Program-made: the position numbers
NCBI RefSeq assembly: GCF_045037415.1
Contig: NZ_CP173438.1
Source of the DNA: Escherichia coli
GTDB lineage: Bacteria > Pseudomonadota > Gammaproteobacteria > Enterobacterales > Enterobacteriaceae
DNA length: 64,000 bases
Strand: one strand, 5' to 3'
In this document: piece after piece, positions 1-3,000 of the stretch
Layout: each line of letters begins with the position of its first letter
Numbering within the stretch: the first letter of the stretch is position 1

Positions 1-3000
1 TTTATTTGTGCAATTTAGTGAATTTGCTTTTTGTTGGCTTTATTTGATGTGTATCACATTTTGTGTGTTATTTTTCTGTGAAAAGAAAGTCCGTAAAAAT
101 GCATTTAGACGATCTTTTATGCTGTAAATTCAATTCACCATGATGTTTTTATCTGAGTGTATTCTTGTTGTTAGAATTTTATTCTGGTTTAATTTTGTTT
201 TGTGGGTTAAAAGATCGTTTAAATCAATATTTACAACATAAAAAACTAAATTTAACTTATTGCGTGAAGAGTATTTCCGGGCCGGAAGCATATATCCAGG
301 GGCCCGACAGAAGGGGGAAACATGGCGCATCATGAAGTCATCAGTCGGTCAGGAAATGCGTTTTTGCTGAATATACGCGAGAGCGTGCTGTTGCTCGGCT
401 CTATGTCTGAAATGCATTTTTTTTACTGATAGGTATTTCTTCTATTCACAGTGACAGGGTCATTCTGGCTATGAAGGACTATCTGGTAGGTGGGCACTCC
501 CGTAAGGAGGTCTGCGAGAAATACCAGATGAATAATGGGTATTTCAGTACAACACTGGGGAGACTTATACGGCTGAATGCTCTTGCAGCAAGGCTTGCAC
601 CTTATTATACAGATGAGTCATCGGCATTTGACTAAATTATGGCATTCCGGAGTTTCTGGAAGATAAAAAAAGAAGCCCTTGTCAGAAAGCAGACAGGTTA
701 TATCAGTATTCTGTCGATAAATAACCTGCCCTGAAAATACGAGAATATTATTTGTATTGATCTGGTTATTAAAGGTAATCGGGTCATTTTAAATTGCCAG
801 ATATCTCTGGTGTGTTCAGTAATGAAAAAGAGGTTGTTATTTATGATTAAGTCGGTTATTGCCGGTGCGGTAGCTATGGCAGTGGTGTCTTTTGGTGTAA
901 ATGCTGCTCTAACTACTCCACAGGGGCAGGGTAGAGTAACCTTTAACGGAACTGTTGTTGATGCTCCATGCAGCATTTCTCAGAAATCAGCTGATCAGTC
1001 TATTGATTTTGGACAGCTTTCAAAAAGCTTCCTTCAAGCAGGAGGCGTATCCAAACCAATGAATTTAGATATTGAATTGGTTAATTGTGATATCACTTCA
1101 TTTAAGGGGGGGGAGGAGTCTCGGCAGCAAAAAAAGGGACTGTGAAGCTGGCTTTTAGTGGTCCAAGGGTTTCTGGTCATAATGAGGAGTTAGATACCAG
1201 CGGGGGGACAGGTACTGCGATTGTAGTTCAGGCTGCAGGTAAAAACGTTTCTTTCGATGGCACAGAAGGTGATGCTAATACCCTGAAAGATGGTGATAAT
1301 GTGCTGCATTATACTGCGATTGTTAAGAAGTCGTCAGCCAATAATGCCCAAGTCACTGAGGGTGCTTTTTCTGCAGTCGCAACCGGTGATGCTGCCAACT
1401 TACTGATTTAGTGTATGATGGTGTTTTTGAGGTGCTCCAGTGGCTTCTGTTTCTATCAGCTGTCCCTCCTGTTCAGCTACTGACGGGGTGGTGCGTAACG
1501 GCAAAAGCACCGCCGGACATCAGCGCTATCTCTGCTCTCACTGCCGTAAAACATGGCAACTGCAGTTCACTTACACCGCTTCTCAACCCGGTACGCACCA
1601 GAAAATCATTGATATGGCCATGAATGGCGTTGGATGCCGGGCAACAGCCCGCATTATGGGCGTTGGCCTCAACACGATTTTACGTCACTTAAAAAACTCA
1701 GGCCGCAGTCGGTAACCTCGCGCATACAGCCGGGCAGTGACGTCATCGTCTGCGCGGAAATGGGCGAACAGTGGGGCTATGTCGGGGCTAAATCGCGCCA
1801 GCGCTGGCTGTTTTACGCGTATGACAGGCTCCGGAAGACGGTTGTTGCGCACGTATTCGGTGAACGCACGATGGCGACGCTGGGGCGTCTTATGAGCCTG
1901 CTGTCACCCTTTGACGTGGTGATATGGATGACGGATGGCTGGCCGCTGTATGAATCCCGCCTGAAGGGAAAGCTGCACGTAATCAGCAAGCGATATACGC
2001 AGCGAATTGAGCGGCATAACCTGAATCTGAGGCAGCACCTGGCACGGCTGGGACGGAAGTCGCTGTCGTTCTCAAAATCGGTGGAGCTGCATGACAAAGT
2101 CATCGGGCATTATCTGAACATAAAACACTATCAATAAGTTGGAGTCATTACCTACAACGTTTATCGACCTCACACGAACAACGATGGTTTACCGCCTTGC
2201 TTACATGAAGAAAAGTGGAAACAGGTTATTCCGGTGTCCTGATTTTGTGAACCACTACAATAATCCTTTTTCACAGACTTGTCAGCAGCCAGCATTTATG
2301 TTCTTTTACCTGCGGGAATTTATCCGTCTGCCTGTCGGGACTACTCTGTCATACAGAAATCAGGTAGGAATAAATTGTAGTGGAAAGTCGATGTTTACCG
2401 GATGACTGATGCGCGCTTGTACACAGACAGTGTGTTTCAGTAATATGGAGAATAATGAAATGAATAACACAGACACATTAGAAAAAATAATCAGACACCA
2501 AAAAAACAAAGACCCCGCATATCCCTTTCGGGAACATTTGTTGATGCAGCTCTGTATTCGCACAAATAAAAGAATGCAGGATAATATATCTGAATTTCTG
2601 GGGGTGTATGGAATAAATCACTCAGCATATATGGTTCTCACCACATTATTCGCAGCGGAGAACCATTGTCTGTCACCTTCAGAGATAAGCCAGAAACTTC
2701 AGTTTACCAGAACTAATATTACCCGCATTACAGATTTTTTAGAAAAAGCCGGATATGTAAAAAGGACGGATAGCAGGGAGGATCGCCGTGCTAAAAAAAT
2801 CAGTCTGACATCTGAAGGTATGTTTTTTATTCAGAGGCTCACTCTTGCACAAAGCATGTATCTGAAAGAAATCTGGGATTATCTGACCCATGATGAACAG
2901 GAACTGTTTGAAGTCATTAATAAAAAGTTACTGGCACATTTTTCTGATGCCAGCTCATAAAGTGCGAAATATCTGAGGATGCTGGATAGCTTCAGGCAAG

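Follow-up and report, generated by a model that had tools for sequence, protein, structure and literature searches.

The first 7491 nucleotides of the window (the window being the whole 64,000-nucleotide stretch of Escherichia coli DNA that was analysed) carry what is left of a pap operon, two insertion sequences, a fragment of a third, and the end of a genomic island. The features are listed below with their coordinates and strand.

1-321, no strand assigned: regulatory region between papI and papB, which forms the pap phase switch; 95% identical to the papI-papB region of CFT073.
322-635, plus strand: papB pseudogene, frameshifted by one missing base in the T run 417-424, from alignment to CFT073 papB.
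843-1384, plus strand: papA pseudogene, out of frame through the loss of one base in the G run 1106-1113, with its 3' end cut by IS1; 'papA, frameshifted' in RefSeq.
1385-2152, plus strand: IS1 copy 1, 768 bp, with insA at 1440-1715, the insB' frame to 2137 and the A6C site at 1691-1697.
2153-2259, plus strand: right-terminal 107 bp of an IS3-family element, with the last 29 transposase codons (YNVYRPH...PVS*), the stop at 2240-2242 and the end ...CACTACA.
2260-2459, plus strand: papX leader and putative proximal promoter; exactly from 2260 onward it is homologous to the sequence upstream of CFT073 papX and to the intergenic region between sfaY and sfaX of foc.
2409-2960, plus strand: papX, intact, MarR-like flhDC repressor; the RefSeq start is 2409 and a 166-codon form starts at 2460.
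2961-3411, plus strand: native sequence downstream of papX without an annotated gene, ending at the second IS1.
3412-4179, minus strand: IS1 copy 2, inverted, identical to copy 1 at 768/768 positions and missed by the original prediction.
4180-7491, minus strand: pheV-proximal island end, with a small hypothetical gene, a TPR protein, a P4-type integrase and tRNA-Phe (EC958 annotation), 98.8% identical to CFT073.
4654-5727, minus strand: the TPR protein (EC958 annotation).
7416-7491, minus strand: the tRNA-Phe (ARAGORN).

The left end has the organization of a divergent papI/papB regulatory region, in which two GATC sites (111-114 and 213-216) are spaced 102 bp apart and an inverted repeat pairs 93-119 with 208-234. 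The papI gene lies just beyond the window edge and is annotated 84 nt upstream in EC958. The adjoining papB does not encode an intact activator. Its T run holds eight residues against nine in the intact papB of CFT073, and the frameshift leads to a stop at 427-429, after codon 35; the loss of one base at this site had been predicted and is borne out by the CFT073 reference. The RefSeq annotation covers just the last 54 codons (471-635), and the translation, once repaired, differs from CFT073 PapB by one residue. The T8 state is common to all five related loci examined (EC958, CE10, P649, 23AR0303, and 266917_2).

The papA gene is likewise broken as anticipated, by a G8 run in which one added G leaves the PapA frame open through to the IS1 junction. 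The gene is cut at 1384/1385, at the terminal repeat of IS1 as was also foreseen, and the IS1 replaces the last 6-7 codons of the conserved C-terminal strand (...AVANFNLTYQ). RefSeq calls papA frameshifted in EC958, Nissle 1917, and DETEC-P649 as well. The literature calls this allele 'F10', the name resting on papers that type ST131 H30 as 'F10 papA' positive and use F10 papA as a marker of that subclone (PMC5369007). NCBIfam has no specific models for PapA, PapB, or PapG, so it can neither name these proteins nor type the papG class of CE10.

Both IS1 copies (1385-2152 and 3412-4179) are 768 bp long with terminal inverted repeats, insA, insB', and the A6C site of the minus-1 frameshift, of which AAAAAAC at 1691-1697 is the slippery motif in copy 1. 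The annotation of EC958 gives copy 1 as an IS1A family transposase with programmed frameshift. Copy 2 marks the breakpoint at which the window lacks the hly region of CFT073. A 9-bp target duplication is absent around both copies (the flanks of copy 1 are gtcgcaacc and tacaacgtt), and the swapped half-sites of a simple IS1-IS1 inversion were looked for at both copies and are absent. No duplication would be expected of copies placed at the junctions of deletions or rearrangements. As neither copy has one, both the mechanism of each deletion and the original insertion site are presumptive.

Searches with the CFT073 proteins PapC, D, E, F, G, H, J, and K gave no match anywhere in the 64-kb window (tblastn, E<=1e-3), which upholds the prediction of a decayed P-fimbrial operon that has lost its usher, chaperone, minor pilins, and adhesin. 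P fimbriae cannot be made from this locus, because these components are gone, PapA is without its C-terminal strand, and PapB is broken. The operon is dead regardless of the reading frames of papB and papA, owing to the IS1 truncation and the deletion.

How the structural genes were lost depends on the identity of the segment between IS1 copy 1 and papX. The segment 2153-2405 had been taken as the 3' end of papG, which would imply a single IS1-mediated deletion running from papA to a point inside papG, with the last 84 papG codons left before papX. An 88-codon open reading frame (2139-2405) does stop 3 nt before the ATG at 2409, and papG is the gene upstream of papX in complete operons. This part of the claim stands, and the segment 2153-2405 is neither non-IS sequence nor a gene tail. 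Positions 2153-2259 are 93-96% identical to other annotated IS3-family ends and match their transposases; the true coding frame here differs from that of the 88-codon frame and stops at the TGA 2240-2242. The fragment is continuous with an 810-bp element remnant in two related loci (L002 and L004) and collinear with a complete, pseudogenised element in CE10 and DETEC-P649, the full copy of which begins with an OrfA-like N-terminus. Element continuity, the transposase C-terminus, and the terminal ...CA place 2153-2259 in the IS3 family, an assignment at family level. The remainder, 2260-2408, is a non-coding leader conserved across papX, focX, and sfaX, and aligns to the non-coding DNA downstream of CFT073 papG and to the sfaY-sfaX spacer. 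Hence the suggestion that the segment might be unrelated to pap genes applies to its first 107 bp, which are IS DNA, and not to the rest, which is the papX leader of a pap operon.

Further evidence is against any papG tail. No tblastn match to CFT073 PapG was found in the window, and the 88-residue frame matched no NCBIfam family. The papG stop of CFT073 lies about 110 nt upstream of the point at which homology to the window starts (2260), and the papG allele of CE10 ends before the IS3 element, within the segment that the window lacks. By these comparisons, no papG sequence remains in the window, and the alignments refute a single deletion from papA into papG, leaving it extremely improbable. 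The right-hand endpoint lies inside an IS3-family element that was once inserted between papG and papX. A target duplication for that insertion was sought by comparing CE10 with CFT073, and the papG-proximal flank was too diverged to align.

Intermediate forms of the locus are preserved in other strains. CE10, DETEC-P649, 23AR0303, and 266917_2 have the arrangement papA', IS1, papK tail, papE, papF, frameshifted papG, complete IS3 element, papX, IS1, int, and pheV, and the junction of IS1 with the papK tail occurs in 56 complete genomes, IAI39 among them. The right side of this junction in CE10 is the last 12 nt of papK as found in CFT073. By BLAST, the window corresponds to CE10 minus L006 14084-17486, with 99.4-99.8% identity on either side. 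Since these intermediates share the IS1/papA junction of the window, the state of the window is the product of a second, nested deletion of 3.4 kb. The locus has undergone at least two nested IS1-associated deletions rather than one loss from papA to papG. The predicted IS1-mediated deletion stands as an IS1-associated loss, in at least two nested steps, by transposase action or by IS1-IS1 recombination.

Other genomes bear on whether the frameshifts are real. Homopolymers of 8-10 bases are prone to error, the papB run of Nissle 1917 is T9 in CP007799 and T8 in the newer CP022686, and the G run differs among genomes (8, 9, or 10). One might hence suppose that both frameshifts are sequencing or assembly errors and that papB, and papA up to IS1, are truly in frame. 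This is highly unlikely: the frameshifts are not read errors, because window 1-4400 is identical across many genomes and Nissle 1917 has the same remnant. The G8 form is exact in 568 independent complete genomes, close to the 559 with the ST131-type structure, and the T9 version of this papB allele is exact in only 3 genomes (5 in the >=99% band) against many T8 assemblies among the matches listed. RefSeq, as said, calls papA frameshifted in three further strains, and the operon would be dead even with both genes in frame. As a side observation, the few T9 matches include the older Nissle 1917 assembly, which the newer one contradicts.

Of the 735 genomes that carry this papA allele, 568 have G8 and 11 have G9; DETEC-P649 has G10. 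CE10, 23AR0303, and 266917_2 have G9 with the same IS1 junction as the window. Because the IS1 truncation is the same in relatives whose run is G9 or G10, the papA frameshift is not what killed the gene, and G8 is later neutral drift in an already dead papA. The variation in run length between lineages, with G9 in frame, may also recall a working phase switch of the slipped-strand kind that governs PapA expression. Such a switch is scarcely credible here, as all the carriers examined (the window/EC958, Nissle 1917, CE10, DETEC-P649, 23AR0303, and 266917_2) have an IS1-truncated papA and no usher or chaperone at the locus, and G8 is seemingly fixed in one structural lineage and not switching. 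No intact operon with this papA allele was found, and the few G9 genomes inspected were all IS1-truncated. The ancestral G9 state and the account of what exactly the first deletion took away therefore rest on the CE10-type relatives and on the CFT073 operon, which has another papA type.

The decay of the operon, a stepwise course held with high confidence, is as follows. One T was lost from the T9 run of papB. An IS3-family element came to lie between papG and papX, and papG acquired its frameshift. A first deletion joined IS1, 6-7 codons before the papA stop, to the last four codons of papK, with the loss of papH, papC, papD, papJ, and papK. In the lineage that led to the window, a second deletion, from the right end of the same IS1 into the IS3 element, took out the papK tail, papE, papF, papG, and about 1150 bp of IS3. 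Lastly, the G9 run of the already dead papA slipped to G8. The sequence states belonging to the T loss, to both deletions, and to the G slippage are present in the genomes compared, as is the nesting of the deletions; we infer the order of the first three steps and the choice between transposase and IS1-IS1 recombination.

Classical IS1-promoted adjacent deletions keep one IS end fixed, extend for variable lengths from the other end, and leave no target duplication. The second deletion, and perhaps the first, may instead have arisen by homologous recombination between two IS1 copies in direct repeat, the one in papA and a new insertion in IS3, which is a distinct possibility though somewhat short of probable. 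The surroundings are a hot spot for IS1: just upstream of papX, 266917_2 carries a further IS1 in direct orientation with a clean 9-bp duplication (window 2381-2389), and in 20AH011 and WR14-2 the same IS3 element is joined to IS1 at a third point. Further, the papA IS1 of the window bears, at IS1 positions 508-573, variants of the other IS1 copy of CE10, as a recombinant would. This patch is not diagnostic, since the papA-side IS1 of DETEC-P649 already has those variants without the second deletion. Relative to the window copy, the papA-side IS1 has 8-9 differences in CE10 and only 2 in DETEC-P649, a pattern that could stem from gene conversion or recombination between IS1 copies instead of simple descent. 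Since adjacent deletion and IS1-IS1 recombination alike end with a single IS1 that lacks a target duplication, the two cannot be told apart from the sequence.

In the midst of this decay papX is intact. Its product is 96% identical in amino acids to CFT073 PapX, has no stops, and matches the MarR/MprA family (E=2e-34), as a full-length MarR-type winged-helix protein highly similar to the characterised PapX. The inferred papX promoter would consist of a -35 TTGTCA (2279-2284), a 19-nt spacer, and a -10 TTTTAC (2304-2309; TTTTAT in CFT073 and foc), with the start at A2317. A proximal promoter with a 19-bp spacer, whose transcript begins with an A lying 144 bp before the ATG, has been described for papX (PMC6246914), a description that by our reading fits ATG 2460 only. 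A σ70 scan of 2050-3450 gave sites no more numerous than in shuffled sequence and missed the published promoter, because the 19-nt spacer lies outside the 16-18 range of the scanner. In EC958, transposon insertion mutants of papX (EC958_3259) were enriched in a hypermotile pool (logFC 8.76; PMC5425062). It is likely that papX is the one surviving functional gene, with its own proximal promoter right after the IS3 fragment and a role in motility repression as in the EC958 literature (PMC5425062); an active repressor would mean that the remnant is not entirely silent. Downstream, the first 66 nt of 2961-3411 match CFT073, and longer stretches are 91-93% identical to the papX-downstream region in UTI89, 536, and others.

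The unit made of the IS3 fragment and papX is conserved at >=99% in 936 complete genomes, and three of its rearranged contexts were examined: 20AH011 and WR14-2 carry it in the opposite orientation to pheV, and together with papI and neighbouring island genes it was found once on a conjugative plasmid, pE2022-9. It may be tempting to see papX, with its own promoter, as a domesticated orphan regulator kept by selection while the fimbrial genes erode, in a cassette bracketed by the two identical inverted IS1 copies that is invertible and occasionally mobile, a reading we consider doubtful.

On the whole, we hold with high confidence that what lies at the pheV-proximal end of GI-pheV is a pap (P-fimbria) operon that was dismantled stepwise and survives as a non-functional remnant. 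EC958, JJ1886, and many further complete genomes match window 1-4400 at 100% identity, and at least 80% of it is covered in 559 complete genomes. The same remnant is present in Nissle 1917, and in the EC958 annotation it adjoins int and tRNA-Phe (pheV). The pap remnant of E. coli ST131 and Nissle 1917 is already known from publications, and the EC958/JJ1886 locus has been termed 'remnants' or 'papA-G negative' (Totsika 2011, PMC3203889; PLoS Genet 2024, PMC11537424). The homopolymer lengths, the IS3 fragment, and the series of nested deletions were not found in the two accounts consulted (PMC3203889, PMC11537424). The lesions now have exact coordinates, which carries little weight as a discovery. 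The locus explains the 'F10 papA positive' PCR scores of ST131 H30 isolates, though it cannot yield P fimbriae, and virulence-gene callers should not take papA, papB, papI, and papX calls here as P-fimbriation. Convenient lineage markers are provided by the length of the G run and by the junction of IS1 with IS3.

Among known systems, the GI-pheV remnant of EC958 and JJ1886 is the same object as the window and differs in nothing; EC958 and Nissle 1917 share its gene order of papI, papB', papA', IS1, papX, IS1, int, and pheV. The locus type of CE10, IAI39, and DETEC-P649 shares the papB T8, the papA allele, the IS1 junction, the IS3-papX junction, the second IS1, and the integrase end at 99.4-99.8% identity, but it keeps 3.4 kb more (papK tail, papE, papF, frameshifted papG, and the whole IS3) and has a G run of 9 or 10 against 8 in the window. 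The pap operon of PAI-pheV in CFT073 (papIBAHCDJKEFG-papX) has the same island position and orientation to int and pheV, with 95% identity in the papI-papB region and 95.7% in papX and its leader. Unlike the window, CFT073 has the T9 papB, another papA serotype, all the structural genes, and no IS3 upstream of papX, and about 19 kb including hlyCABD separate its papX from the integrase end, a stretch in place of which the window has IS1 copy 2 alone. Classical IS1 adjacent deletions resemble those seen here in the fixed IS end and the lack of a target duplication, and IS1-IS1 recombination would give the same product. The sfaX and focX genes of the S and F1C operons are the same MarR-like gene as the papX of the window, with the same 149-bp leader and proximal promoter; in the intact sfa and foc operons the X gene follows sfaY, whereas in the window papX is an orphan between inverted IS1 copies.

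The remnant of the P-fimbrial (pap) operon was laid out over window positions 1-4200 by direct sequence reading and ORF listing.

Features of the pap remnant (window coordinates)
1-321, non-coding region
322-429, 35-codon ORF matching the PapB N-terminus
471-635, PapB C-terminus, in a different frame from the N-terminal part
843-1145, PapA N-terminus
1142-1384, remainder of PapA, in a different frame
1385-2152, IS1, 768 bp
2153-2408, 256-bp stretch between IS1 and papX
2409-2960, papX
2961-3411, 451 bp 3' of papX
3412-4179, second IS1, in reverse orientation to the first
7416-7491, tRNA-Phe (ARAGORN)

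The two IS1 copies (1385-2152, 3412-4179) are mutually identical (768/768), and a 9-bp target duplication sought at the flanks of either was absent. The ST131 chromosomes EC958 and JJ1886, among many others, match window 1-4400 at 100% identity, and at least 80% of this segment is covered in 559 of 5426 complete genomes. The EC958 annotation reads papI, PapB fragment, frameshifted papA, IS1, papX, IS1, two hypothetical genes, tyrosine integrase and tRNA-Phe, adjoining yqgA and speC, and this stretch is the pheV-proximal end of the island GI-pheV. The same arrangement is found in Nissle 1917, with PapX and IS1 transposase proteins identical to those of the remnant and yqgA and speC products identical to those of CFT073; hence, the remnant is not limited to ST131. 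The pap phase-switch DNA is retained (GATC sites at 111 and 213, spacing 102 bp), and it controls nothing useful any longer. Window 3027-3411 (385 bp, between CFT073-like papX downstream sequence and the second IS1) is unannotated; it was unmatched in the CFT073 pheV island over its first 49 kb, and in other strains it matches sequence lying 3' of papX at 91-93%.

The original prediction that papB and papA have each lost one base in a homopolymer was borne out. The papB run (417-424) is T8 against T9 in the intact CFT073 gene, and one added T yields a 104-residue PapB that differs from CFT073 PapB at a single position. T8 is common to EC958, CE10, DETEC-P649, 23AR0303 and 266917_2, and an exact match to the T9 version of this allele occurs in only three genomes (five within the >=99% band). 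Among these is the older and larger Nissle 1917 assembly, NZ_CP007799.1, contradicted by the newer NZ_CP022686.1, which reads T8; the older record is the outlier, an example of the homopolymer noise in public assemblies. RefSeq lists the last 54 codons of the disrupted papB (471-635) as a predicted protein, WP_001305388.1, 'PapB/FocB family regulator'.

Similarly, one G added to the papA G8 run (1106-1113) gives a continuous PapA as far as the IS1 junction. This papA allele is carried by 735 genomes, 568 with the exact G8 form and 11 with the exact G9 form; 568 independent G8 assemblies, a count close to the 559 genomes of ST131-type structure, argue against sequencing error. As had been read, papA is also cut by IS1: similarity to CFT073 PapA ends after ...EGAFSAVA, and the conserved terminal NFNLTYQ is replaced by read-through into the IS1 end. 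In chaperone-usher pilins, the C-terminal strand is required for chaperone binding and subunit polymerisation. IS1 cuts papA at the identical base in every inspected relative with a longer run (G9 in CE10, 23AR0303 and 266917_2; G10 in DETEC-P649), so the G8 slip is drift in an already dead gene rather than the inactivating lesion.

The stretch 2153-2405 had been taken for non-IS sequence holding the last 84 codons of papG, and on both counts this was mistaken. Among annotated IS3-family transposases, it is the 3' ends that positions 2153-2259 match. The element survives as an 810-bp remnant in 20AH011 and WR14-2 and as a complete, pseudogenised copy in DETEC-P649 and CE10, and 2153-2259 is collinear with both forms. 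The true frame of 2153-2259 (YNVYRPH...PVS, stop at 2240-2242) differs from that of the 2139-2405 ORF. Positions 2260-2408 align with non-coding DNA upstream of CFT073 papX, where papG stops ~110 nt further upstream, and with the sfaY-sfaX spacer of an F1C operon. CFT073 PapG had no tblastn match in the window, which together with these alignments rules out a papG 3' end, and the 88-residue ORF matched no NCBIfam family. It follows that the ORF at 2139-2405 is open by chance, spanning the IS1 end, the IS3 scrap and the promoter region.

The predicted IS1-linked loss of papH to papG stands, as two events rather than one. CE10, DETEC-P649, 23AR0303 and 266917_2 carry papA'-IS1-papE-papF-papG(frameshifted)-IS3-papX-IS1-...-int-pheV, with the left IS1 junction of the window and a right junction in the last 12 nt of papK. 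Including IAI39, 56 complete genomes have this IS1/papK-tail junction. Taking positions 14084-17486 out of the CE10 locus gives the arrangement of the window, with both sides 99.4-99.8% identical, and these junctions thus indicate two nested deletions sharing one fixed IS1 end. The first ran from the papA 3' end into papK; the second, in the window's lineage, removed the papK tail, papE, papF, papG and ~1150 bp of IS3. Such a pattern is typical of IS1-promoted adjacent deletion, and recombination between two direct IS1 copies may have been the route instead, as an identical product is expected. This is clearly a hot spot for IS1: 20AH011 and WR14-2 have a third IS1 junction position within the same IS3 element, and 266917_2 has an extra IS1 near papX. 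In CFT073, ~19 kb including hlyCABD separates papX from the integrase end; this DNA is also absent from the window, with the second IS1 at the breakpoint. ISEc35 lies inside papA in 23AR0303 (locus positions 9832-10875), and two ST131 genomes have extra IS3 or ISKpn26 copies inside the 4.4-kb stretch; IS traffic at the locus is continuing.

In the window, papX is bracketed by the inverted IS1 pair. In 20AH011 (locus positions 11530-15027) and WR14-2, the IS3-scrap-papX segment is flipped relative to int and pheV, papB and papA are missing and a decarboxylase/antiporter cluster lies next, which implies an IS1-IS1 inversion with further rearrangement. The 60.8-kb conjugative plasmid pE2022-9 (NZ_OR345929.1; 7001-8259 of the extracted locus) has IS1-IS3 scrap-papX-IS1 at 100% identity, along with papI and upstream GI-pheV genes (TetR, DUF1471); this copy is either an IS-mediated capture of an island fragment or a misassembly.

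The papX gene itself is intact, its product being 96% identical to CFT073 PapX. Luterbach and Mobley mapped a proximal papX/focX promoter, in which transcription begins at an A lying 144 bp before the ATG and the spacer is 19 bp (PMC6246914). Only the ATG at 2460 fits this description, and the CFT073 leader has one additional base, which sets the start-to-ATG distance. That text would put the start at A2317, the -35 (TTGTCA) at 2279-2284 and the -10 at 2304-2309; each falls within the conserved leader, which starts 19 nt beyond the IS3 end. This putative -10 is TTTTAC in the window and CE10 vs TTTTAT in CFT073 papX and a foc operon; nearby, position 2313 is C vs A in the same comparison. In an EC958 transposon screen, papX mutants were strongly enriched in hypermotile cells (PMC5425062), and on these data the gene still works in exactly this setting. 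In 266917_2 (locus positions 15724-16491), the papX leader contains a third IS1, flanked by a clean 9-bp duplication (window 2381-2389), that separates the putative start from the start codon and probably uncouples papX from its promoter.

The feature is real and its outline was correctly recognised, papG being the one wrong detail, and it is biologically ordinary. EC958 was scored papA-G negative by Totsika et al. (PMC3203889), a 2024 GI-pheV study found only pap locus remnants in EC958 and JJ1886 (PMC11537424), and 'F10 papA' is used routinely as a PCR marker for the H30 subclone (PMC5369007); the remnant is therefore already known. Added to these accounts are the exact lesion coordinates, the papG correction, the IS3 scrap and an intermediate state from which the order of the deletions follows.
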